Below are positions 1,191-28,962 of a DNA stretch of 32,000 nucleotides, in pieces. Numbering within the stretch: the stretch's first letter is position 1; each line of letters starts with the position of its first letter. The position numbers and the translations under genes are program-made. The DNA lies in the NCBI GenBank assembly GCA_001552015.1, contig CP010514.1, forward strand, positions 573,888-605,887, given 5' to 3'. The stretch comes from Candidatus Nanopusillus acidilobi (GTDB lineage: Archaea; Nanobdellota; Nanobdellia; Nanobdellales; Nanobdellaceae). The notes beneath the pieces were generated by a model. It worked only from the letters and a program-made list of their open reading frames with translations. It was not told the origin of the DNA and did no database searches.

Positions 1191-1945
1191 TGGCAAAGGT
1201 ATATACAATATCTTCTGGAAAAGGAGGTGTGGGAAAAACTTTCTTTTCTATAAACTTATCAAGAGCTCTCTCATTATTAAATTTTAAAACATTGTTAATT
1301 GATTTTAACTTAAGTACACCAAATGTATCAATAAATCTTGGATTAGGTAATGAAAATAACAATATACATAAATTTTTAAGAGGAGAAATTGATATAAAAG
1401 ACTGTATAAAGGAATATAAAGAAAATTTTTATATAATTCCTGGAAGTTTAGATATAAAAGATCTAATATATATTTCTACAGAAAAATTACATAATGGAAT
1501 AATGGAAATATATGATGATTTTGATTATATTATTATAGATTCTGCTGCTGGAATTGGTAAAGAAGCAGTAGAAGCATTAAAGGCTTCTGAAGAGGCAATA
1601 GTAATAACAAATGTTGAAAAATCATCATTAATAGATGCATATAGAGTTACAAAAGTATTAGATAGCTTGGATATAAAAACTTTTGGAATTGTTTTAAATA
1701 AAGTTAGAAGAAGAATAAATTATGTAAGAATTGAAAGATTTTTTAAAAAGCAAATAATCGGTATAATTCATTATGATGAAAATGTACAAATTTCAATGGA
1801 CAATGGTATACCTTTAATAGATTATGATATAAATTCTATAGCTTCTAAAGATATAATAGAAATTGTAGAAAAAATGACTGGAAAAGAATTAAAAGTTAAA
1901 AATAGATTTATAGACAATATATTAAAAATATTCGGATGGAAATAG
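1190..1945 (+). CDS. MinD/ParA-family P-loop ATPase (archaeal MinD-like)
   Basis: Deviant Walker A SGKGGVGKT near the N-terminus and a Walker B-like IIIDSAAG. The length of about 250 aa is typical of the family. Confidence 0.85.
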   Translation: MAKVYTISSGKGGVGKTFFSINLSRALSLLNFKTLLIDFNLSTPNVSINLGLGNENNNIHKFLRGEIDIKDCIKEYKENFYIIPGSLDIKDLIYISTEKLHNGIMEIYDDFDYIIIDSAAGIGKEAVEALKASEEAIVITNVEKSSLIDAYRVTKVLDSLDIKTFGIVLNKVRRRINYVRIERFFKKQIIGIIHYDENVQISMDNGIPLIDYDINSIASKDIIEIVEKMTGKELKVKNRFIDNILKIFGWK

Positions 1946-2208
1946 ATTTTGAATTAGATAAAATATTTGAAACATTGGATAGAAAAAAATATAAAAAAAT
2001 ATTATTGCAATTTCCTGATGGATTAAAACCATATTCTAAAGAAATATACGATAAAATAAAGGAAAAATATAAAGATATAGAAATATATATTTGGTTTGGA
2101 TCTGATTTCGGTGGATGTGATATACCAATATATTTAGATAAATATGGATTTGATTTAATAATTCATTTTGGCCATTCAAAATTTTATAAATTAAAATTGG
2201 ATGAATAA
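1936..2208 (+). CDS. dph2: Diphthamide synthase Dph2, N-terminal fragment only (90 aa)
   Basis: ILLQFPDGLK...GSDFGGCDIP...DLIIHFGHS aligns with the first ~85 residues of archaeal Dph2 (VLIQSPEGL...YGACD...ALIHLGHS). The ORF then stops, and there is no room downstream for the remaining ~240 aa. Confidence 0.75.
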   Translation: MEIDFELDKIFETLDRKKYKKILLQFPDGLKPYSKEIYDKIKEKYKDIEIYIWFGSDFGGCDIPIYLDKYGFDLIIHFGHSKFYKLKLDE

Positions 2209-2437
2209 TAACTTACTTTTAATTTTATCAATTATTTTTCTATTTATTTCAATAATTTTATTACTTATTTTCTCATTATCCAATTCTTCTAATACAAAAT
2301 TTGCTGGATTAATATTAATAGGTCCAATACCAATATTAATATCAAATTCTTATCAACTATCAATTATATTATTAATTATTTTATTGATTATTATTTTGAT
2401 TATTCTTATTATCTTCTTCTACAAGATAATCATATAA
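2201..2437 (+). CDS. Small two-TM membrane protein, DUF131/TIGR00304-like
   Basis: Two hydrophobic segments flank AGLILIGPIPIL, which resembles the IGPIPI signature I recall for the archaeal DUF131 family. The 3' end overlaps the convergent HAD gene by 57 nt and is low complexity. Confidence 0.45.
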   Translation: MNNNLLLILSIIFLFISIILLLIFSLSNSSNTKFAGLILIGPIPILISNSYQLSIILLIILLIIILIILIIFFYKIII

Positions 2438-3070
2438 TTCCTTTAAATTTCTAAATACCATTGTAGCACCAGCAGAAATCAATTCTCTCTTTTTATTTAC
2501 ACCACTAGCAACACCTATTACATTTATTCCAGCTCTCTTTGCAGCAATAATACCATATATAGAATCTTCTATTGCTAATATTTCATTTGGTAATAGAGAA
2601 AATCCTTTTACTATTTTAATATAACCCTCTGGGTCTGGTTTTGGTTGTTTTACATCATCAGAAGTTATTATAACATCAAATAAATTATCTACATGTAAAT
2701 GCTTTAATACCTCCATTGTTAATCTTCTAGTATTTGAAGTAAAAATTGCTATTTTATATTTTTTATCCTTAAAATAATTTAATATTTGTTTTGCCCCGGG
2801 ATTAAATTTTATTTTTTCTATATATTCATTTAACAACATATTTTCAAATTCTTTCCTTATATCTTCAATTGATATATTTAAATTATATTTCCTTATTATA
2901 TTATATATTATATCTTCTATAGGCATTCCAGAATTATCTAAAGAACCTTCTATCTTTACATTATATCTTTCTAATATCTTTTTATGGACCTCATCATAAA
3001 CTTTTAAGCTATTTATAAGTGTCCCATCCAGATCAAGTATTACTCCCTTTAAATTGTAAAATATGACCAT
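2381..3070 (-). CDS. HAD-superfamily hydrolase (phosphatase / beta-phosphoglucomutase-like subfamily IA)
   Basis: Motif I is ILDLDGTLINS, motif II is FTSN, and the C-terminal acidic motif is EDSIYGIIAAKRAG. Confidence 0.85.
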   Translation of the reverse strand: MVIFYNLKGVILDLDGTLINSLKVYDEVHKKILERYNVKIEGSLDNSGMPIEDIIYNIIRKYNLNISIEDIRKEFENMLLNEYIEKIKFNPGAKQILNYFKDKKYKIAIFTSNTRRLTMEVLKHLHVDNLFDVIITSDDVKQPKPDPEGYIKIVKGFSLLPNEILAIEDSIYGIIAAKRAGINVIGVASGVNKKRELISAGATMVFRNLKELYDYLVEEDNKNNQNNNQ

Positions 3071-3108
3071 AATTATAATATTTTAAAGAAAGATATAAAA
3101 TAATTAAT

Positions 3109-4149
3109 ATGATCAAAATAAGAGAACAGATAAAGGATATAATAATTAATAATTATATTAAAGAAGGTAAAGATCCATTTGATTCTATAATTGGACAAGA
3201 AAATGCAAAGAGACAAATATTATCTTCATTAATTTCTGGAAGAAATATATTAATAATAGGGCCTCCAGGTACTGGAAAAACAACTTTAGCAAAAAATATA
3301 GCAAAATTACTACCAGAAATTGATTTTCCAGATGGAATTCCATTATGGGCTTATGAAGAATTTCCTTTTGTATCTGAAGAATATAGAAAAAAATGGAAAG
3401 AAGGTCCTTTTATAAAAATAAAGGGAGAAGATAGATTTATTAGAATACAGGGTTCTTATGATCTATCTGTAGAAGATCTGATTGGAGATATTGATCCTTC
3501 AAAAGCATTAAAATATGGTATACATTCTTTAGAATCTTTTATACCTGGAAAAATATTTAGAGCACACCATGGTGTATTATTTTTTGATGAAATAAATAGA
3601 GCACCTCCAAAGGTTCAAAATAGTTTATTAGAATTATTAGAAGAAAAGAAAATAACAATTGGGACATATGAATTTCAAATACCATTAGATATAATATTTA
3701 TTGCTACAATGAATCCTGAAAGTTATTACGGAACTGAAAAAATATCAGATGTATTATTAGATAGATTTGATATAATAAATTTAGATTATCCAAAAGATAT
3801 TGAAGAAGAAAAGAAGATTATATTAAAATATGGAAAAAATTTGAATGTTAATTTTCCTGAAAAATTATTGGAATTAACAATTGAATTTATACAAAAATTG
3901 AGAAAAGATGATAAATTAGAAAAGAAACCATCGGTTAGGTCTTCAATTGGTATTTATGAAAAAGCTCAGGCTTTGGCAATAATAGATAAAAAAGAAAATG
4001 TTGAAATTCAACATATATTTGAGGCTTTACTATCAATATTACCACATAGGATAAGATTAAAACCATCATATAAAATGGAAATAAATGAAGAAGAATATAT
4101 AAAAAAGGAGTGGAATTCTTTTATAATAGGGAAAGACTTTCGGAGTTGA
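3109..4149 (+). CDS. AAA+ ATPase, Mg-chelatase ChlI / MoxR-like
   Basis: Walker A is GPPGTGKTT and Walker B is VLFFDEINRA. The sensor region is IFIATMNPE...LLDRFD. It is paired with a downstream VWA protein. Confidence 0.8.
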   Translation: MIKIREQIKDIIINNYIKEGKDPFDSIIGQENAKRQILSSLISGRNILIIGPPGTGKTTLAKNIAKLLPEIDFPDGIPLWAYEEFPFVSEEYRKKWKEGPFIKIKGEDRFIRIQGSYDLSVEDLIGDIDPSKALKYGIHSLESFIPGKIFRAHHGVLFFDEINRAPPKVQNSLLELLEEKKITIGTYEFQIPLDIIFIATMNPESYYGTEKISDVLLDRFDIINLDYPKDIEEEKKIILKYGKNLNVNFPEKLLELTIEFIQKLRKDDKLEKKPSVRSSIGIYEKAQALAIIDKKENVEIQHIFEALLSILPHRIRLKPSYKMEINEEEYIKKEWNSFIIGKDFRS

Positions 4150-4237
4150 TTCAGAAAATTTAATAAGAAGACCTGGAGAATCATTTAAATATAGTTCAAA
4201 GGAAATTAAGAAAAATATAAATGAATTAATTGAAAAA

Positions 4238-5221
4238 ATGATAAAAGAAGGATATCCAATATTTGATATAGATAAAATTATGGAAAATAAAAAAGAATAT
4301 TCTGAGATATTATCAAAGCTAACTGAATATGATGAAAAAAGAATAAGAGAGGATAAGGATTATAGATTTAATAAAGAATTTAAGAAATCATTGAATAAAT
4401 TAAAGGAAATATTAACTAGTGAAGGATATATAGATGAAAATGGAGAATTAACTGAGAAATCTTTAATTGAATATTCTAAATATTTAATAGGAAATATAGA
4501 AAAGGAAATCGAAGGGATATTTGAATATGGAAAATATTTATCAAATTATATTGGAAATGATGAGGAATTTTATAATAAATATTTTAGTATAGGAGATAAA
4601 TATAATAAAATTGATATAAAAGAAACAATAAGAAATTATATAAAGAATAAAGAAGTTACAAGATTTGTTGTTAATGTTAAAAGAGAAAATAAAGGTGGTA
4701 AATATATAATTCTATTAGATGTATCTGGAAGTATGATTGGGGAAAAAATATTTGAAGCAAAAAAAGCTTTAATATTATTAATATCAAAGATATTAGAAGA
4801 TAATAATCTTTTAGATATAATATTATTTAATGATAAGATTGTTAAAGAATATGATAATGTTAGAGGATTAAAGGATATAATAGATATATTAAAAATTATA
4901 CCAAATGGAAGCACAGATATTGCCTTAGCATTTAATTATTTATTAAATAAAGAAGAAAATGGACATATAATATTAATAACCGATGCATTACCAACAAAGG
5001 GAAAAAATCCTGTAGAAAGAACTTTAAAGTTAGCTAAAGAATTAAGCCAATATTATTATATATCAATAATTGGAATACAATTAAATGATGAAGGAGAAAA
5101 AATTGCAAAGGAAATAGTAAAATATGGAAGAGGAAGATTATTTATTTCTAAAGATATAAAAGATTTGAAAAAACTATTATTATTAGAATACGAAATATCT
5201 AGACAACAGATGATAAAATAA
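4238..5221 (+). CDS. von Willebrand factor A (VWA) domain protein, partner of the AAA+ ATPase
   Basis: MIDAS motif ILLDVSGSM plus downstream GSTDI and ILITDALP. The frame is already open from 4130 without an ATG. Confidence 0.8.
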   Translation: MIKEGYPIFDIDKIMENKKEYSEILSKLTEYDEKRIREDKDYRFNKEFKKSLNKLKEILTSEGYIDENGELTEKSLIEYSKYLIGNIEKEIEGIFEYGKYLSNYIGNDEEFYNKYFSIGDKYNKIDIKETIRNYIKNKEVTRFVVNVKRENKGGKYIILLDVSGSMIGEKIFEAKKALILLISKILEDNNLLDIILFNDKIVKEYDNVRGLKDIIDILKIIPNGSTDIALAFNYLLNKEENGHIILITDALPTKGKNPVERTLKLAKELSQYYYISIIGIQLNDEGEKIAKEIVKYGRGRLFISKDIKDLKKLLLLEYEISRQQMIK

Positions 5222-5756
5222 TTTCTTCAGGTTTATTTTCCCCTATATATTTCTTATATTTTCCTGATAATTTCTTTCTTGCAATATCTAGATAGAAACT
5301 TATTCTGTTTGTAAATTCTGGTTTATTGTAATATATTGATAAAATAATATCTTTATAGAATACTTGAGCAGCTCTTGTATATGGTTTTCCAAATGCATGT
5401 CTCATTCCTTGTGAAATTCTATCTGCACCTGCACCATATACCAATGCATGTTCTCTTACAACATGATGAGGGTATTTTCTTACAATAAATAAAAATTCTT
5501 TTACTTCATTTTCTAAATATTTTAATATATTGGTTCTTACAGCTTCTAAGGAATAATCAGATACCTGAACATTATGTAATGCAATTAAATGAGCAGCATA
5601 TTTCCATTGATCCTTTGGTATGTTTATCATTCCCATAATCTGCATCCTTAATTTTGGTACTGGAGCACCTGGAATTTTATTATATGATTTACTATATGAA
5701 AATCTTGTATATGGTCTTTCTATTTCCTTAAATATTCTCCAGGGTCTCTTTGCCAT
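5199..5756 (-). CDS. rpl10e: Ribosomal protein uL16 (L10e)
   Basis: MAKRPWRIFKEIERPYTR... and GAGADRISQGMRHAFGKPYTRAAQV match archaeal L10e. Confidence 0.93.
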   Translation of the reverse strand: MAKRPWRIFKEIERPYTRFSYSKSYNKIPGAPVPKLRMQIMGMINIPKDQWKYAAHLIALHNVQVSDYSLEAVRTNILKYLENEVKEFLFIVRKYPHHVVREHALVYGAGADRISQGMRHAFGKPYTRAAQVFYKDIILSIYYNKPEFTNRISFYLDIARKKLSGKYKKYIGENKPEEIILSSVV

Positions 5757-5757
5757 T

Positions 5758-6237
5758 TTATATCATTTTCTTTAATAATATATTTATATCTTTTCCATAG
5801 TACCCATATGCACCACCCTGACTATATGGAACTTTTATACCTCTTCTTGGATAACCCTTTGATGGAGTTTTTAGTCTAAATATATTTTTTATTTTTGGTA
5901 TTGAATCTAAATCTATTTCATTATTTAATAATTTTTCAACAAATGTATCAATATCCATATTTAATGTTTGCTTAATATAATCTTCAGTTAATCTTTTATT
6001 TCCTTCCAATCTTCCTCTCTTTAATAATAATTCCTTTAATGTTTCCTTATCTATTTCCCCCCATGCAACCCATGGTTCTACTTTTTTTATCATTCCTCTT
6101 ATATCTTTTGTATCCTTCATTATTACTGCATAATTATTTCTTCTTAATCTTAACAAATATAATGTATCTTTTATTTCTTTATTTGCCTTAACAGTTCCTT
6201 TTATCCTTACAATTGCTAATAATCCCATTTTATACAA
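5758..6237 (-). CDS. rpl30p: Ribosomal protein uL30
   Basis: LAIVRIKGTVKANKEIKDTLYLLRLRRNNYAVIM is the L30/L7 signature. It lies directly downstream of uS5. Confidence 0.9.
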   Translation of the reverse strand: MYKMGLLAIVRIKGTVKANKEIKDTLYLLRLRRNNYAVIMKDTKDIRGMIKKVEPWVAWGEIDKETLKELLLKRGRLEGNKRLTEDYIKQTLNMDIDTFVEKLLNNEIDLDSIPKIKNIFRLKTPSKGYPRRGIKVPYSQGGAYGYYGKDINILLKKMI

Positions 6238-11038: not shown

Positions 11039-11113
11039 TGCCCCCACCGGGATTTGAACCCGGGTCTCGGGGATGAGGACCCCGTATCCTGGACCTGACT
11101 AGACGACGGGGGC
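11039..11113 (-). tRNA. tRNA-Glu (nominal anticodon CUC), no encoded CCA
   Basis: The minus strand GCCCCCG-UC-GUCU...GGAU-A-CGGGG-UCCUCAU-CCCCG-AGAC-CCGGG-UUCAAAU-CCCGG-UGGGGGC-A folds as a cloverleaf. The discriminator A fits Glu. Loop position 33 is C rather than U. Confidence 0.85.
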
Positions 11114-22444: not shown

Positions 22445-24055
22445 ATGAGATTACAATCTGAAATGATTATAGCATTAATATTGTTAATAGTAGGAGCTCT
22501 TGCTACTGTAATAATATACAATATAATATCTCCAAATTTAAATATAATAAATCCTTCTGGACAGGAAATTTCAAGATCTTTAGAATTAAATTTCCAATTA
22601 TTAGATTATTTTATAGTAAATAATACATTATATGCATATGTAAAACCCTCAGAACCAGTTAATTATTCTCAAGTATTTGCAATTTTAAATGATAGATTAG
22701 TTAATGTTTATCCTTATAATTCAAATGGATCAATTGTAAATCCATATAATAATGGTTTATTAATTGTTGTTGCAAATTTATCTCAAATTCCTCCAGATCA
22801 AAATGGAAATTATAAATTAGAAGTTGGATTAGAAAATGATATAATTGGAGTATTTGATATAAAATATATTTCTAATTCATTAATTAATTATTTTCAACCT
22901 CCAATTGTTTTTAATATATCGGTCATATCAACCTCCCTTACATGTCAATTACCATATTTACCTTTAATATTATACAATAGTCAATCTATTCCAACTCCTT
23001 CTCCTTTTCAACAGGATATTGCAATATGTAATGGAACAATTAATATTGGTAATAGTTTTGCATATGTAAATAATGCAACATTATTTAATGAAATAAATAG
23101 AAATGGATCTAATGTATACTTTACAACAACCTGTAATAGTACCCCAAATATATATTCATGGTATGAAGGTCAATTAATTAATGGAAGTACATATTGTGAT
23201 GTTTGGTGGATAAATTTATCTAATGGAATTCCTGCTAATTCAAATATTACAATATATATGTATATAGGAAATAGTAGTGATAATTATTATTCCCAATATT
23301 ATCCATATGTTGGTACTTCTCCTCAAGTAATTTCAGGATATGATAATGGTCAAGATGTATTTATAGCATATGGATATTTTAACAATACATTTGATGGATG
23401 GAGTAGATATGTTTATTCAGGATCATTTTCTCCAACAGCAACTTCAAATGGTATTGAAATGATAAATAATAATGGTGGTGAAGGTACATATATTTTACCT
23501 CCAAATAATGAAAATATTCCAGAAATACCTTTAATTGTTGAAGAAGCCTGGTATCATACTCAAAGTGCAGATGCAAATACTATATCCTTATTTGGAAATA
23601 CAAATAGTCAGGTAGATGTAACTAATATAGGAGGTACAGACGGTGGTTCCACACCAGCATCTAGTTCATCTACATTTGTACAATTTGAATATTATGGTGG
23701 ACAACCATATGTTATGTTAAAATCTGCAGTAACAGATCAATATTTAAGTTATACATCTTTCCCAACATCTGGTGGAACTGTTTATTCATATTTAATAGTT
23801 AATTCTACATATGCACAAACAGGATATTATATTTATAATTCTAATCAAGTATGGGCTCCTTTAACATTATTAGATACATATAATATAAATTATAATGGAT
23901 ATACATATTATAATTTAAATTATAATCCTTTCCAATATGGTACATTAGAAATTGGTGCAGGAACTGGTGGAGCTGCTTCATACCAATATGAAGAATGGGT
24001 TGTTGCTAGAGCATATCCTCCAAATGGTGTAATGCCTTCAATTTATATTGGTTAA
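22445..24055 (+). CDS. Large pilin-anchored surface protein: N-terminal hydrophobic pilin/archaellin-like segment plus DUF2341-like plus ConA/LamG-like lectin domain
   Basis: The N-terminus is MRLQSEMIIALILLIVGALATVIIYN. The middle segment ...NVYFTT...YSWYEG...CDVWWINLSNGIPANSNITIYMYIGNSS resembles the DUF2341 signature (..YWIE...VWVKVP.IPA...IYMYYGN). The C-terminus ...FDGW...YEEWVVARAYPPNG resembles the lectin-fold tail of such proteins. N-x-S/T sequons are very dense. Confidence 0.6.
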   Translation: MRLQSEMIIALILLIVGALATVIIYNIISPNLNIINPSGQEISRSLELNFQLLDYFIVNNTLYAYVKPSEPVNYSQVFAILNDRLVNVYPYNSNGSIVNPYNNGLLIVVANLSQIPPDQNGNYKLEVGLENDIIGVFDIKYISNSLINYFQPPIVFNISVISTSLTCQLPYLPLILYNSQSIPTPSPFQQDIAICNGTINIGNSFAYVNNATLFNEINRNGSNVYFTTTCNSTPNIYSWYEGQLINGSTYCDVWWINLSNGIPANSNITIYMYIGNSSDNYYSQYYPYVGTSPQVISGYDNGQDVFIAYGYFNNTFDGWSRYVYSGSFSPTATSNGIEMINNNGGEGTYILPPNNENIPEIPLIVEEAWYHTQSADANTISLFGNTNSQVDVTNIGGTDGGSTPASSSSTFVQFEYYGGQPYVMLKSAVTDQYLSYTSFPTSGGTVYSYLIVNSTYAQTGYYIYNSNQVWAPLTLLDTYNINYNGYTYYNLNYNPFQYGTLEIGAGTGGAASYQYEEWVVARAYPPNGVMPSIYIG

Positions 24056-24081: not shown

Positions 24082-24154
24082 GGTCCGGGTAGCCTAGTGG
24101 TAAGGCGTCGGGCTGTGGACCCGAAGATCGCGGGTTCGAATCCCGCCCCGGACC
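24082..24154 (+). tRNA. tRNA-His (GUG) with genomically encoded G-1
   Basis: G-1 is followed by GUCCGGG, which pairs with CCCGGAC, and G-1 sits opposite C73. The anticodon loop is CUGUGGA and the T arm is GCGGG-UUCGAAU-CCCGC. Confidence 0.95.
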
Positions 24155-25087
24155 CTAATGAGTTTCCCAGCCAACAGTTTTTTCAAATCCTAAAATTTTC
24201 TTAATATAACTTTCTAACAATAATTTTTCTTTATTTGTTATTTTACATAAATTATGGGCCATTTTTAATCCTCTTGGATAAGATTTCTGATCATAAATAA
24301 CTTCTTTTATTATTTCTTTAAATTTTTCTTTTCCAATTTTTTCCATTCCTTCTAATCTATATATATGATCATTATATCTTGCCCTAAAGTATATTAAATA
24401 TAAATTTTTGTTACAAAATGGACAATTTGGAATTTTTGAACCTAAAAATTCTTTTATTTGTTTTTCTTTAATATCTGTATAAAATATTTCTGATGGAAAA
24501 ATTCTCATCAATGTTAGTAAATCTGATCTACCTGTTTTTATTATATCTAAATTTAATATTCTCTTTGCAACTGCCAATAAATTTCCATTATTTATTAAAT
24601 ATTCAAAGTTTTCTAAAAATTCTTTTCTTCTATTTTCAACATTCTCATCATAAAAATTATACAGAAATTTTGAATATAATATGGAATCTGATATTATTGA
24701 TCCATCTATAAATATATATCTATCAGAATATTTTCTTGCCAATCTATATTCTAAATTTTTTGATAATAATTCTGAAATATCTTGAATGTCGAAATTTTCA
24801 TTATTCATCGATCTTATAAAAGATGTTTCGAAAAATTCTATATCTTCTATACTTTCATATATATCATCAGAAACAATTACTGCTCTTGAATATACATAAC
24901 TATAAGGTCCGACAATACCATTTACAAGAGAAGAGTCTATAAATCCATATTTTTTCTTTTCTTTTATCTCAATATTATCCAAATCTAATTTTTCAATATT
25001 AATTTTTTCTTCCTTATTATTTTCTTCATCTTTTTTTATTTGATTGATTTTTTGATTTATCTTTTCTAATAAATTTTTTGTTAACAT
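24155..25087 (-). CDS. nurA: NurA-domain 5'-3' nuclease (DNA end-resection)
   Basis: YGFIDSS and IFIDGSI are the two Asp-containing NurA motifs, followed by LAVAKR and a C-terminal MAHN. The stop codon abuts the 3' end of tRNA-His. Confidence 0.6.
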   Translation of the reverse strand: MLTKNLLEKINQKINQIKKDEENNKEEKINIEKLDLDNIEIKEKKKYGFIDSSLVNGIVGPYSYVYSRAVIVSDDIYESIEDIEFFETSFIRSMNNENFDIQDISELLSKNLEYRLARKYSDRYIFIDGSIISDSILYSKFLYNFYDENVENRRKEFLENFEYLINNGNLLAVAKRILNLDIIKTGRSDLLTLMRIFPSEIFYTDIKEKQIKEFLGSKIPNCPFCNKNLYLIYFRARYNDHIYRLEGMEKIGKEKFKEIIKEVIYDQKSYPRGLKMAHNLCKITNKEKLLLESYIKKILGFEKTVGWETH

Positions 25088-25123
25088 AAAAATATTTTTA
25101 TATTAAATTATATTAAATATGTA

Positions 25124-25183
25124 TCCCCCGCTTAGACGAACCAATATGAAAAGATGAGTATTGGTAACGATGGGCGGGGGACA
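25124..25183 (+). ncRNA. H/ACA-box guide-RNA-like hairpin (single hairpin plus ACA)
   Basis: A 7-bp G:C-rich lower stem (25125-25131 / 25174-25180) encloses a symmetric 9+9-nt internal loop. A 6-bp upper stem CCAAUA/UAUUGG carries the 12-nt apical loop UGAAAAGAUGAG, whose GA motifs are K-loop-like. ACA at 25181-25183 lies 16 nt after the upper stem. Confidence 0.5.
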
Positions 25184-25188
25184 TTTAT

Positions 25189-25272
25189 GCCGCGGTGCCC
25201 GAGCGGACCAAGGGGTATGGCTGGAGACCATATCCCCGAAAGGGGACGTGGGTTCAAATCCCACCCGCGGCG
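25189..25272 (+). tRNA. tRNA-Ser (GGA), class II
   Basis: Acceptor GCCGCGG/CCGCGGC plus G73. The anticodon stem UAUGG/CCAUA carries loop CUGGAGA. The variable arm is UCCCCGAAAGGGGAC and the T arm is GUGGG-UUCAAAU-CCCAC. A T-tract follows. Confidence 0.95.
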
Positions 25273-25408
25273 GATTTTGCTTAAACTATTTTCATCTGTA
25301 AGTAAATTATTAATTACGTAAATCTTTAGTTAAAACCATACACTATAGGCAATCTATCTTAAAGGTGATAAAGTAAAATTTATAAATGTTTACTATTATT
25401 ATTATTAT

Positions 25409-26215
25409 ATGGTCATGACAACAATAAAAGATACATTTCAAAAGGCTACGAATCCATTTCGTAAAGCAATAGATGATAGATGGCAGTATCTTTCAGATGA
25501 CGATAGAAGAGAAATAGCAAGATATCTAGCAGATAAGAAAGATATAATAGAACGTTACTTTTATACTATCAATAAGAATAATAGTGATAAAGTACTAGAT
25601 TCTATTGAACAATTTGCACGTCTTAAAGGATCTTCTATAGATCTACCTACTATATCTCAGTATTTTGATATGCTAGAAAACCTTGATAAAATAATAGAAG
25701 AAATAGATAAAGGTTTCTTCAATTCTTTACCCAAATATAATAATGTAGTAAAACCAAACAACTATTATATGGAAATCGCATTTGACATAGATGGAAATCC
25801 AAAAGATCAAAAAGGAACTTTAGTTGATATATTAAAAAAGCTAATAGGAAACGTCGGAGCTAGAGGTTATCCTATATCTTATTATAACGGAACTGACAAC
25901 TTTCCAATACAATATTATATGGAATTCTATCCAGATCGAACTCACATAAGAATTTTCATTCATACATCCTATATACCCCCAGCTATAGTAGGTTATTTAC
26001 TTTATGAGCTAAACAATATTAAAGGAAAAGAATCAATAATACCTCCAAGCGGACAACAATATCATATTATTAATAATGTAGCAGGAATTATTAATAATCG
26101 CATAGGAATAGACATAGATCAACGTATAGCTTCTTATGCCGGCCAAGCTCTTTGGCAATATAGTTTCTTATATAGATTTTTTAGGGTAGAAGAAATTCCG
26201 TATTGGATTACTTAA
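25409..26215 (+). CDS. Orphan 268-aa protein with atypical (foreign-looking) codon usage
   Basis: A long ORF flanked by 136-nt and 181-nt noncoding spacers. Six in-frame CGN Arg codons occur (25460, 25553, 25619, 25937, 26099, 26123), whereas Arg elsewhere in the window is almost always AGA/AGG. Acidic motifs are IAFDIDGNP and IGIDIDQRI. Confidence 0.6.
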   Translation: MVMTTIKDTFQKATNPFRKAIDDRWQYLSDDDRREIARYLADKKDIIERYFYTINKNNSDKVLDSIEQFARLKGSSIDLPTISQYFDMLENLDKIIEEIDKGFFNSLPKYNNVVKPNNYYMEIAFDIDGNPKDQKGTLVDILKKLIGNVGARGYPISYYNGTDNFPIQYYMEFYPDRTHIRIFIHTSYIPPAIVGYLLYELNNIKGKESIIPPSGQQYHIINNVAGIINNRIGIDIDQRIASYAGQALWQYSFLYRFFRVEEIPYWIT

Positions 26216-26396
26216 AATATCATAAAGAATTTTAGAAATCAGAAACAACTTTTTCAGTATTTCAGATAAAAATTTTTTAATTTCTTAAAATATTGTCAGA
26301 ACTTATATCTTCTTCTTTAATTAAATCTAAATTGTTTTATTAAATACTTTGCTATAATTTTTATTTTTTAATAATTTTATAGATTATATATATTTT

Positions 26397-28388
26397 ATGA
26401 CAGATCATTTTAAAGCAATATTTAAAACAGATCTTAATAGAAATCTCAATTTTACTGAAGAAACTATTGAAATTTTAGATAATAAAATTTCCATATATGA
26501 TGATAATAAAAACAAAATATTAGAAATCGATAATGTAGAAGAACTAAATATAGAATATGGAATAAGTATATGTAAATTAATTGCAATAGACAAAGATGGA
26601 AAAATATTTGAAGTTGCATATTTTACAAAGAAAAAAGCGGATAATATACAAAAAATTGTAGATGAATTTAATTTAAAAGTAAAAACGGAAATAATTGAAA
26701 AAGAAGAAAAGAAAAGATCTAAAAAAGAAATATATGGATTTTTAATACAAATTATTAAAAAATATAAGAAAGAACTTATCTTAATTACTATTATCTTTAT
26801 TATAGGTACTATAATAAGTCTAATTCCTCCTTATTTAACAGCTTTATTAATAAACGAGGTTCTTATATCAAAAATACCATCACTGGAAGTATTTCTTACA
26901 ATAATTTTCTTAATGCTAATATCTTCTATTATTTCTAGATTTTCATATTTAATAGGTAATTCTTTATTAAATATTACACAGACAAAAATCAGAAAGGGAA
27001 TAAGAGAGTTATTATTAGAACATATAATTTTTAATGATGTTTCTTTTATAGAAAAATACTCTCCTTCTACATTAATAGCAAGATATCAAACGGATATAGA
27101 GGAAATAGATGGTTTTATTGCATTTGATCTGCCTTTTATAATTATAGATACTTTAATGCTTGTTGGGACCCTTATTATACTTTTTTTATTATTACCATTT
27201 TTAGCAATACCTATAATAATTGCAGCATTTGTTATTTTTGTTCTTTTCATAATTTATGAAAGAAAAATTAGAAGAATTGATAAAAAAGCAAGAATAAAGT
27301 CTGTAGATGCCGAAACTCAAGTAAATAATGTTCTAAGGAACTTTTATAGCATTAAGTTATTCTCAAAAGAAAAAGAAGAATATGAAAAAACAAAAAATAT
27401 AATAAACTCTTGGTATTCGACAGATACTCAGGTAGGAAAACTTATTACAATAAGAGGTGAACTATTATTTTTAATAATAGATTTGATTACTGTTTTTATA
27501 TGGTATATGGGTGGAATTTTTGTAATTAATAATCTAATTAAATTGGGTATATTGGTTGCTTTTGTAACTTATATTTTATATATTTATAGCCCACTCCAGA
27601 CATATGAAAGGTTTTTTGGGGATATTCCAAAAGCTTTAGTTTCTGCTGAAAGAATATTAGAATTATTAGAAGATAAGCCAAAAATATTAAATAAAGAAAA
27701 TGCTTTAAAACCAAATATGATTGATGAAATAAAATTTGTTAATGTTACTTTTGGATATGAACCAGGTTTTCCTGTATTAAAAAATATTTCTTTTACAATA
27801 AAACCTAAAGAAAAGGTTGCAATTGTTGGAAAAAATGGAGCTGGAAAGACAACAATTGCTAAATTATTATTAAGATTTTATGACATAAATGATGGAGAAA
27901 TATTAATTGGAAATACAAATATAAAAGATATAGATTTAAAATATCTTAGGGAAAAAATTTCATATTTATCACAAGAACCTGAAATTTTTAATAATACTAT
28001 TAGATACAATATATCTTATGGAAATCAAAATGCAAATGAAATAGAAATAATTAGAGTTTGCAAAATTGTAAATATACATGATGATATAATTAAATTACCT
28101 TTTGCATATGATACCCCAGCAGGAGAAGAGGGAACAAAACTATCTAGCGGCCAAAAACAAAAAATAACAATTGCAAGAAATATAATAAAAAATCCTGATA
28201 TATTTATATTTGATGAATTAACATCAAATATTGATTCAAAGAGCAGAGAACAAATTTTTTCTGCTATATTAAATATTTCAAAAGATAAAACTTTAATATA
28301 TATTTCACATAATTTATCGGAAGTATTAAATATGGATAGAGTTATTGTTATAGAAGACGGAAAAATTGTTGAAGAAGGAAAAACCTGA
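26397..28388 (+). CDS. ABC exporter, fused TMD-NBD (MsbA/MdlB type) with an extra ~110-aa N-terminal soluble domain; 3' end displaced by a frameshift
   Basis: Six TM segments are present. Walker A is GKNGAGKTT, the signature is LSSGQKQKITIARN, Walker B is IFIFDELTSNID and the H-loop is ISHN. The normal C-terminal ...DDLIKKKGKFYELFKNQ is encoded in the next frame. Confidence 0.9.
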   Translation: MTDHFKAIFKTDLNRNLNFTEETIEILDNKISIYDDNKNKILEIDNVEELNIEYGISICKLIAIDKDGKIFEVAYFTKKKADNIQKIVDEFNLKVKTEIIEKEEKKRSKKEIYGFLIQIIKKYKKELILITIIFIIGTIISLIPPYLTALLINEVLISKIPSLEVFLTIIFLMLISSIISRFSYLIGNSLLNITQTKIRKGIRELLLEHIIFNDVSFIEKYSPSTLIARYQTDIEEIDGFIAFDLPFIIIDTLMLVGTLIILFLLLPFLAIPIIIAAFVIFVLFIIYERKIRRIDKKARIKSVDAETQVNNVLRNFYSIKLFSKEKEEYEKTKNIINSWYSTDTQVGKLITIRGELLFLIIDLITVFIWYMGGIFVINNLIKLGILVAFVTYILYIYSPLQTYERFFGDIPKALVSAERILELLEDKPKILNKENALKPNMIDEIKFVNVTFGYEPGFPVLKNISFTIKPKEKVAIVGKNGAGKTTIAKLLLRFYDINDGEILIGNTNIKDIDLKYLREKISYLSQEPEIFNNTIRYNISYGNQNANEIEIIRVCKIVNIHDDIIKLPFAYDTPAGEEGTKLSSGQKQKITIARNIIKNPDIFIFDELTSNIDSKSREQIFSAILNISKDKTLIYISHNLSEVLNMDRVIVIEDGKIVEEGKT

Positions 28389-28962
28389 TGATTTAATTAA
28401 GAAAAAGGGAAAATTCTATGAATTATTTAAAAATCAAATAGAAAATTTAGAAAAAATAGAAAATGTTAATCAAAAATCAGAATTAGTCAATTTAAATATA
28501 ATAAAAGATAAAAATATAATAATAGAACCTTCTAATAGACCTAGCAGAGTAAATATTATATATAATGGTAAAAAACATGAAAACCTTATGCCAAAACTTT
28601 TATTCCCAATATCAAATCCAAAATTTGTAGGATTTTACGATGATAATTTCAATGAAATATTTTTATTAGAAGATTATACAATTTTAGACAAAGATTCTAA
28701 AAAAATATTAGAAAATGCAATAAAATATAATTCTATAATATATAAAATAGAAAAAATAAAGAAGATAGATATTGAAGGAGGATCTATATTATTAAATGCT
28801 CTTATAAATAATAAAGAATTGGAGATAAAAATAATTTCTCCAGAAAATCTTTTTATTTTTGAAGATAAGGTTTTATTTATTGATGAAAATGGTAACCTAT
28901 ATCAAATAATATTAAAAGATTTGGACAAGAGGAGCTTAAAGGAATTAAATAAAATAATATAA
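28366..28962 (+). CDS. DUF1854-like domain (ABC-associated), probably the continuation of the ABC exporter ORF
   Basis: The first ~25 residues are the missing ABC NBD tail. After that, LLFPISNPKFVGFYDDNFNEIFLLEDYTILDKDSKKILENAIKYN resembles the DUF1854 pattern (R.FP.S.P...I......E...I.DL..LD..S...LE). Confidence 0.6.
   Translation: MLKKEKPDDLIKKKGKFYELFKNQIENLEKIENVNQKSELVNLNIIKDKNIIIEPSNRPSRVNIIYNGKKHENLMPKLLFPISNPKFVGFYDDNFNEIFLLEDYTILDKDSKKILENAIKYNSIIYKIEKIKKIDIEGGSILLNALINNKELEIKIISPENLFIFEDKVLFIDENGNLYQIILKDLDKRSLKELNKII

Follow-up and report, generated by a model that had tools for sequence, protein, structure and literature searches.

A putative single-hairpin H/ACA-type small RNA gene, usually joined to tRNA-Ser, in Nanopusillaceae nanoarchaea

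What is encoded in the G+C-rich island that lies between the NurA gene and the next gene in Candidatus Nanopusillus acidilobi? The island falls in a stretch of 32,000 nucleotides (nt) of contig CP010514.1 (positions 573,888–605,887, forward strand), hereafter the window; coordinates below are window positions unless another locus is named. At 24% G+C, the window encodes archaeal proteins (NurA, NOG1, many ribosomal proteins, a class II histidyl-tRNA synthetase and a ribonucleotide reductase). From the NurA start codon (25087; gene at 24155–25087, minus strand) to the next gene, the island consists of a 60-nt hairpin (25124–25183, plus strand), a UUUAU spacer and a tRNA-Ser(GGA), with the hairpin lying in an intergenic gap of 101 nt between divergent genes. 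We argue that the hairpin is likely to encode a single-hairpin small RNA (sRNA) of the box H/ACA type in Nanopusillaceae nanoarchaea, usually co-transcribed with tRNA-Ser.

Written in RNA letters, the plus strand reads as follows. An 8-base-pair (bp) lower stem (H1) folds from UCCCCCGC (25124–25131) and GCGGGGGA (25174–25181, also placed by the alignment of variants), giving seven G:C or C:G pairs and one U-A pair, in which an A of the ACA box is matched with U25124. Above it opens a pocket of the pseudouridylation type with 9 nt on either strand, delimited from the sequence and its relatives: UUAGACGAA (5′ guide, 25132–25140) and UAACGAUGG (3′ guide, 25165–25173). Folding and alignment place a 6-bp upper stem (H2) at CCAAUA (25141–25146) and UAUUGG (25159–25164), capped by the apical loop UGAAAAGAUGAG (25147–25158), which reads as a kink-loop (K-loop), U-GA-AAAGAU-GA-G, with tandem G·A/A·G pairs on a U·G closing pair. 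The ACA box (25181–25183) stands directly 3′ of H1, 16 nt past the last base of H2 (G25164 to A25181), or 15 nt if A25140 pairs with U25165 and extends H2 to 7 bp. Only UUUAU (25184–25188) then separates the ACA from G1 of tRNA-Ser(GGA) (25189–25272; Rfam RF00005, 54.6 bits, and ARAGORN), whose CCA is not encoded. After the tRNA come G, A and a short T-tract, TTTT (25275–25278), a possible archaeal terminator of the hairpin–tRNA unit. A preliminary description of this DNA had proposed the same architecture (G:C lower stem, 9+9 pocket, 6-bp upper stem, ACA after the stem), the same five-base spacer and a T-tract past the tRNA, and each of these details could be read from the sequence. All other G+C-rich stretches of the window, apart from its tRNAs and a ribonuclease P (RNase P) RNA, are inside coding open reading frames (ORFs).

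Published rules for Pyrococcus H/ACA motifs call for an H1 of at least 7 bp, loop strands of 5–11 nt, an H2 of 5–6 bp, a K-turn or K-loop, and an ANA box 3′ of H1 (PMC2377435). The hairpin presents seven G:C or C:G pairs plus a U-A pair followed by ACA, a pocket of 9+9 nt, an H2 of 6 bp and, in its bases, a U-GA…GA-G loop that would be a candidate L7Ae site. At the level of sequence, then, it is well supported that the hairpin follows the structural rules for archaeal H/ACA motifs, as the preliminary description had held. It is also far more stable than expected from its composition, with a folding energy of −29.3 kcal/mol (z = −5.3) that none of 200 shuffled sequences reached. We scanned both strands of the window with a descriptor built on the rules of PMC2377435 (ACA directly behind an H1 of 7 bp or more, 5–11 nt per loop strand, H2 of 5–6 bp and an apical loop of 8–35 nt). 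When tandem GA..GA at the base of the loop was added, with H1 set to 7 bp and H2 to 6 bp, the sole match was this hairpin, compared with an expectation of 0.017 per 32 kb from 60 Markov simulations; without the GA..GA the descriptor is non-specific, returning 8 matches in the window versus 6.5 in simulated sequence. A permissive Rfam search of 251 nt around the hairpin found no family that claims it as a member. The only meaningful non-tRNA match was to HgcG/Pab40 (RF00064; E = 2.5e-4, 21.6 bits), in which Pab40 hairpin 3 is aligned and its lower stem, GAUGA and ACA coincide with those of the window hairpin. That score is far under the gathering threshold of 77, placing the hairpin outside the family and leaving a resemblance only.

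The nearest NurA homologues belong to Nanopusillaceae nanoarchaea, including the complete genomes of YN1 (AP031373.1; 65% identity) and Nanobdella aerobiophila (AP019769.1; 57%), and the same hairpin is found in 41 related loci, which together with the window give 19 distinct variants (33 of the nanoarchaeal loci were added by a pattern scan of metagenome contigs). It sits between NurA and tRNA-Ser in YN1, in the JGI hot-spring contig L002 and in the Nanopusillaceae metagenome-assembled genome L126. In Nanobdella (L004, L005) and in a further lineage (L127, L128 and L162) it lies upstream of NurA and no tRNA follows it. No copy was found near NurA in L129/L130, which represent the most divergent of the NurA lineages examined (39% identity), and viral contigs searched for the hairpin gave four matches at chance level. 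A covariance model made from the alignment recovers one copy per locus and scores 97.5 bits in the sense direction versus 12.9 in antisense. Within the stems, 91% of alignment cells are paired, against 39–53% when the partners are slid by 1–3 columns, with changes on both sides in three pairs and several wobble intermediates. The top pair of H1 appears as C-G, U-A or G-C, other H1 pairs shift from C-G to U·G or U-A, and Nanobdella has an H1 of different sequence (CCCUGUC/GACAGGG) that still forms 7 bp. In H2, 97.7% of cells are paired, with one compensatory change (A-U to G-C in L002) and two wobble changes (A-U to G·U in L171 and L175). The stems are thus conserved as helices, and the hairpin is strand-specific and present once per locus.

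The ACA stands 3′ of the stem in all 19 variants, at 16 nt from H2 in nearly every one (15 in L197, 17 in L002). The K-loop bases G27, A28, G35 and A36 (numbering of alignment A1) are invariant throughout, whereas the closing pair (U·G, U-A, C-G, U·U or A·A) and the inner loop vary. Together with the alignment of GAUGA to HgcG/Pab40, these invariant GA dinucleotides strengthen the earlier suggestion of a possible K-loop. Pocket size is kept in relatives, at 9+8 in Nanobdella. On its 5′ strand the pattern UU..G..GAA is retained in 18 of the 19 variants, the G being replaced by A in L197, and the GAA beside the upper stem is invariant; positions 3, 5 and 6 have changed in L126 (UUCGAAGAA) and L127 (UUGGUAGAA). 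The 3′ strand is the better conserved of the two, and in Pyrococcus the 3′ guide has more influence on activity than the 5′ guide (PMC2377435), which fits a guide role without proving it: the strand is the same across lineages except at position 3 and in Nanobdella (UAUCGAAA), and its UA.CGA is invariant, as are most upper-stem bases. Position 3 alternates between A and G among close relatives, as pairing to a target U (A-U or G·U) would allow, although this too is no proof. RNAalifold predicts pairs inside the pocket, but they break in divergent lineages without covarying, which argues for an open pocket loop.

These comparisons speak against a reading in which the hairpin has no RNA function of its own and either arose by chance as a G+C-rich inverted repeat or acts between NurA and tRNA-Ser as a bidirectional terminator or insulator. 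A location in a 101-nt gap between divergent genes would suit such an element, and the bare stem-plus-ACA descriptor is indeed common in A/T-rich DNA. The full architecture, however, is expected far less than once per window, the signal is confined to one strand, the stems covary and the loop motifs do not change. Since NurA is transcribed away from the hairpin, the hairpin cannot terminate NurA. We regard this explanation as highly improbable.

The hairpin's position relative to tRNA-Ser raises a second alternative, namely that it is a structured 5′ leader of pre-tRNA-Ser whose K-loop recruits L7Ae, as an RNase P subunit, to aid a reduced RNase P, with the leader degraded afterwards. The ACA is followed by tRNA-Ser after 1–5 nt in 35 loci. 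In all 30 further loci arranged like the window a tRNA-Ser(GGA) begins 5 nt past the ACA, and the spacer is 1 nt in YN1 (ACA-U-G1), 4 nt in L002 and 3 nt in L126, where the tRNA has a GCU anticodon. This proximity in most lineages favours a leader, as do the strongly reduced RNase P RNA of the lineage, the failure of target searches described below, and the role of L7Ae, which is a known archaeal RNase P subunit. Against it, the hairpin persists with no adjacent tRNA in six loci from two lineages, Nanobdella and the L127 type. In L127-type loci (L127, L128 and L162) the ACA runs directly into a T-tract, UUUUAUUUAUU, and in Nanobdella an ORF of 1320 codons (1719–5968, minus strand, of L004; no Pfam match) lies between the hairpin and tRNA-Ser(GCU). 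A leader would also leave the conserved ACA, its fixed spacing and the conserved 9-nt 3′ pocket strand without explanation. We therefore judge a mere leader quite unlikely: the stand-alone copies indicate a gene in its own right, and the coexistence of fused and stand-alone copies points to an sRNA gene independent of the tRNA, though usually co-transcribed with it. The fusion reported in the preliminary description thus recurs in most relatives, but it is not obligatory, as the two lineages with a hairpin and no tRNA demonstrate.

How would such a unit be transcribed? A promoter-like A/T box, TATTTTTATATTAAA (25093–25107, plus strand), lies 17–31 nt before the first hairpin nucleotide, and comparable A/T boxes are similarly spaced from the hairpin in L002, L003, L004, L126 and L127. 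In the interval from −35 to −19, A+T content is 100% before the hairpin, 76–100% before the other four tRNAs of the window and 65% before tRNA-Ser, whose own interval falls inside the hairpin and contains no A/T box; taken alone, A/T boxes are weak evidence against a background of 24% G+C. As had been proposed from the window, there appears to be no room for a tRNA promoter: the spacer measures 1–5 nt in four lineages, the A/T box is found only before the hairpin, and neither a promoter nor a terminator is apparent between the two genes, as expected of a dicistronic unit with a single promoter. With no room for its own promoter, tRNA-Ser in the fused lineages would be read from that of the hairpin. 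Downstream, relatives carry TTTAATTT or TTATTTTT where the window has its post-tRNA T-tract. Directly upstream of the hairpin, TTATATTAAAT is duplicated in tandem (25098–25118, plus strand), with the first copy alone at a promoter-like distance.

The nuclease needed to separate two such products also appears to be at hand. The window contains an RNase P RNA of ~239 nt at 320–558 on the minus strand (RF00373, 68.2 bits, E = 5e-19), a match under the gathering score of 84 and one that leaves much of the model unmatched. The preliminary description had placed a candidate at 324–554; the RNA is indeed there, and its ends and strand are here revised. In the relative Nst1, a short RNase P RNA and protein subunits have been reported, whereas Nanoarchaeum equitans has none (PMC3655853). 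Hairpin and tRNA-Ser thus probably share one transcript, which the reduced RNase P RNA, acting in trans, would help to cut after 25188.

The other tRNAs of the window offer a comparison. Their 5′ ends lie at 11113, 14386, 14596 and 24083, and tRNA-Leu, -Ala and -His have A/T-rich boxes ~19–35 nt upstream of their mature 5′ ends, the corresponding stretch of tRNA-Glu being less A/T-rich. These local tRNAs may be transcribed with hardly any leader or wholly leaderless, as is the case in N. equitans, an argument that is weak at 24% G+C. The 3′ end of tRNA-His (24083–24155, plus strand) shares one base with the stop codon of the convergent NurA gene, and the two genes abut in YN1, L002, Nanobdella and L126 as well.

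Several results weigh against the hairpin being an H/ACA guide, and they concern its spacing, its covariation statistics, its target and its protein partners. Spacings of 14–16 nt are allowed in eukaryotic H/ACA guides. In Pyrococcus the distance from the ANA box to the target U at the base of H2 is 14–15 nt (PMC2377435), and the 16 nt of our hairpin is one above that range. The covariation score was reached by 11 of 500 shuffles, which is modest because most of the variants are close relatives.

The target search was negative throughout. The preliminary description had predicted a target of roughly CCAUCGUUA-UN-UUCGUCUAA for the 9+9 register (the alternative 8+8 register would give CCAUCGUU-UN-UCGUCUAA). 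No match to the 9+9 target was present in the window with up to 3 mismatches allowed, nor was a target site present in any of the window's five tRNAs or in its RNase P RNA. Its inner 18 positions (YATCGTTATNTTCGTCTAA) matched 24 times in 185,579 species-representative genomes, all bacterial and at chance level, and no nanoarchaeal genome among the GTDB species representatives matched. This genome-wide scan covered the 9+9 register; the 8+8 register was run on proxy ribosomal RNAs (rRNAs), for which we used E. coli rrnH and the archaeal operon of Halomicrobium plasmid pHmuk01. In these proxies, both registers together yielded two 8/9 matches to the 3′ guide versus ~2.5 expected by chance, and nothing better. 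Scans tolerant of G·U pairs in the window and related loci returned A/T-rich coding-sequence matches only. These negatives are weak, as the lineage's own rRNA was not among the sequences searched and real guide duplexes tolerate G·U and partial pairing. The window contains no rRNA, no G+C-rich island of at least 300 nt occurs in 292 kb of related loci, and the Nanoarchaeota 16S primer 7mcF gave one chance-level match in viral contigs. The specific target prediction for the 9+9 pocket is thus unsupported.

One lead was followed in 16S h3. Here the Halomicrobium 16S reads CCAUUGCUA-UC at U33, and a 16S fragment of N. equitans, ACCGCUAUCUCC, fits the prediction at 8 of 11 positions. The primer YNP 35F, from Yellowstone Nanoarchaeota, gives positions 35–54 as UCCCUCCGACUAACC, with which the 5′ guide pairs at only 6 of 9 positions, scattered along its length, and we rejected this site as the target. 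This 20-nt stretch, UCCCUCCGACUAACCCAUGG, thus pairs poorly with the 5′ guide. A regular-expression search for C/D box sRNAs in the window and related loci found none.

An unmatched target leaves some space for a further alternative: a true H/ACA-type ribonucleoprotein RNA with another role, whether an orphan guide, a chaperone of pre-rRNA folding or processing like snR30/U17 of eukaryotes, or a guide acting on an A/U-rich spacer or some other RNA. Architecture and conservation would fit such a role equally well. At ~35% GC the predicted target is rich in A and U, a composition unusual for rRNA helices of a hyperthermophile; no conserved-core rRNA site matches in the proxies; and each of two lineages has three changed positions in its 5′ guide, as would be seen if the guide followed a partner that evolves quickly. 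However, this alternative is without direct support, nearly all Pyrococcus H/ACA motifs have been assigned to rRNA sites (PMC2377435), and an ordinary rRNA target could still exist given that only proxy rRNAs were searched. We consider it unlikely. From its structure and conservation we infer that the hairpin may serve as a guide of the ordinary kind.

Turning to the protein partners, no H/ACA proteins are encoded in the window according to protein family scans, and the evidence for Cbf5, Nop10 and L7Ae comes from literature on the relative Nst1 and not from the genome of the window. The Nst1 gene table lists arCOG00987 (TruB/Cbf5), arCOG00906 (COG2260) and arCOG01751 (L7Ae). We take arCOG00906, and hence COG2260, to be Nop10. 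By this route, three of the four proteins named in the preliminary description are accounted for, and Gar1 (arCOG02466) is missing from the table. N. equitans is without KsgA. In the gain/loss file of the Nst1 paper Gar1 sits beside KsgA, and because of that placement Gar1 is probably absent from Nanoarchaeota. Gar1 raises archaeal H/ACA activity in vitro but is dispensable there (PMC2377435), and N. equitans, with an equal protein set, expresses an abundant 159-nt H/ACA sRNA (PMC3491384).

Weighing these points together, we continue to favour a single-hairpin H/ACA-type sRNA gene, for which the following course of events can be proposed. Driven by the A/T box ~25 nt upstream, transcription would start at the hairpin base or just ahead of it, and in most lineages, including that of the window, would read through the 1–5 nt spacer into tRNA-Ser and end at the T-tract past the tRNA. 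RNase P, with the reduced RNA encoded at 320–558 on the minus strand, would cut at tRNA position +1, so that a single cut could yield both the 5′ end of the tRNA and an sRNA with a 3′ tail of ACA+N(1–5). L7Ae would bind the K-loop and Cbf5–Nop10 the ACA, lower stem and pocket; the pocket, mainly through its 3′ strand UAACGAUGG, would then pair with a target RNA and present a U for pseudouridylation.

We are evenly divided over a stronger version of this proposal, in which the mature 3′ end of the sRNA is made by the very RNase P cut that forms the 5′ end of tRNA-Ser. Guide biogenesis would then be hard-wired to tRNA processing, in an arrangement that mirrors the RNase Z units of N. equitans and is possible only in nanoarchaea that keep RNase P. 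More speculatively, such units could belong to a small set of substrates that make the reduced RNase P indispensable to this lineage, a thought that arises because the A/T boxes of the other local tRNAs are close enough to their 5′ ends for those transcripts to be nearly leaderless. If the co-transcript is real, it would provide a compact natural case of a modification guide matured by RNase P, and work on the unusually small RNase P of these organisms would gain a defined substrate. Natural controls come with the related loci, in the form of spacers of 1, 3, 4 and 5 nt and of two lineages in which the fusion is broken. Whatever its processing, the hairpin would give this lineage, whose genome is ~0.6 Mb in size, an H/ACA-type sRNA shared across the family, where the searchable literature describes none.

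The neighbourhood of the unit shows further variation among relatives. Between tRNA-Ser and the gene for ribosomal protein L18 (29050–29646), the window carries a block of ~3.6 kb (25409–28962, plus strand) that encodes a 268-amino-acid protein without a Pfam match, a 663-amino-acid ORF that reads like an ABC-type transporter and a DUF1854 protein. Since the L18 gene directly follows tRNA-Ser in YN1, L002 and L126, we read the block as a likely insertion in the lineage of the window. At the syntenic position, the tRNA has a GCU anticodon in Nanobdella and L126 (2802–2886, minus strand, of the latter locus) and GGA in the window, YN1 and L002; in the L126 tRNA, the acceptor stem and T arm match exactly and the D and variable arms differ only slightly, which suggests anticodon remoulding or in-place replacement of an isoacceptor. 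On the other side of tRNA-His, an ORF of 536 amino acids (22445–24055, plus strand) is rich in Asn, Tyr and Ser, begins with a hydrophobic segment like a class III (pilin/archaellin-type) signal and has no Pfam match. It adjoins a region where YN1 and Nanobdella carry a gene of the archaeal flagellin type, and its product may be a surface or filament protein. Finally, L160 (WYEB01000051.1) and L180 (WYEB01000026.1), two contigs of one GenBank whole-genome shotgun assembly, carry slightly different copies of the hairpin–tRNA-Ser unit, and the assembly therefore mixes at least two strains.

Among known systems, the closest in form are the single-hairpin H/ACA sRNAs of Thermococcales (Pab91/Pf9, and hairpin 3 of Pab40), which share with the window hairpin a G:C H1, a pocket, a 6-bp H2, a tandem G·A K-motif and the ACA. 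The crystallised H/ACA RNA of Pyrococcus furiosus reportedly has a K-loop UGA…UGAG, like the UGA…AUGAG seen here. Their pockets are unrelated to ours, so the window hairpin is not an orthologue; in addition, its ACA stands 16 nt from H2 and not 14–15, and it is fused to a tRNA gene. Closer in phylogeny is the 159-nt H/ACA sRNA of N. equitans, encoded between NEQ389 and NEQ392, an RNA of the same kind from another member of the phylum. Its features include k-turn-type bulges, ACA motifs, a box A promoter of its own and a T-stretch, and it is abundant in an organism with a minimal genome (PMC3491384). That RNA has two hairpins where the window has one, a different genomic context and no link to a tRNA. 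We considered orthology and rejected it, as the pockets differ (GAGAGUC/UGUUAGU and others in N. equitans); the window hairpin is thus not orthologous to the sole known nanoarchaeal H/ACA sRNA. No paper in the searchable literature ties Nanopusillus or Nanobdella to H/ACA RNAs, and none describes an archaeal H/ACA sRNA in the order sRNA then tRNA.

In its linkage to a tRNA, the unit resembles the dicistronic tRNA-C/D genes, represented by tRNA-Val-sRNA8 and tRNA-Gly-sRNA3 of N. equitans, tRNA-Arg-sR44 of Thermococcus kodakarensis and tRNA-Gly-snoR43 of plants, in which a guide RNA and a tRNA are likewise placed on one promoter and split by a tRNA-processing endonuclease. As a putative counterpart of that endonuclease, we have an RNase P RNA in the window and RNase P proteins reported in Nst1. 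The order of the parts differs: in the tRNA-C/D genes the tRNA comes first, the guide is of the C/D type and the cut is made by RNase Z, whereas here an H/ACA-type RNA precedes the tRNA and RNase P would make the cut. As N. equitans has no RNase P, an sRNA upstream of a tRNA could not be processed there by such a cut. The sRNA-then-tRNA order of the window and its relatives is unusual as a gene arrangement, while the RNA itself is of a known kind and not a new kind of system.

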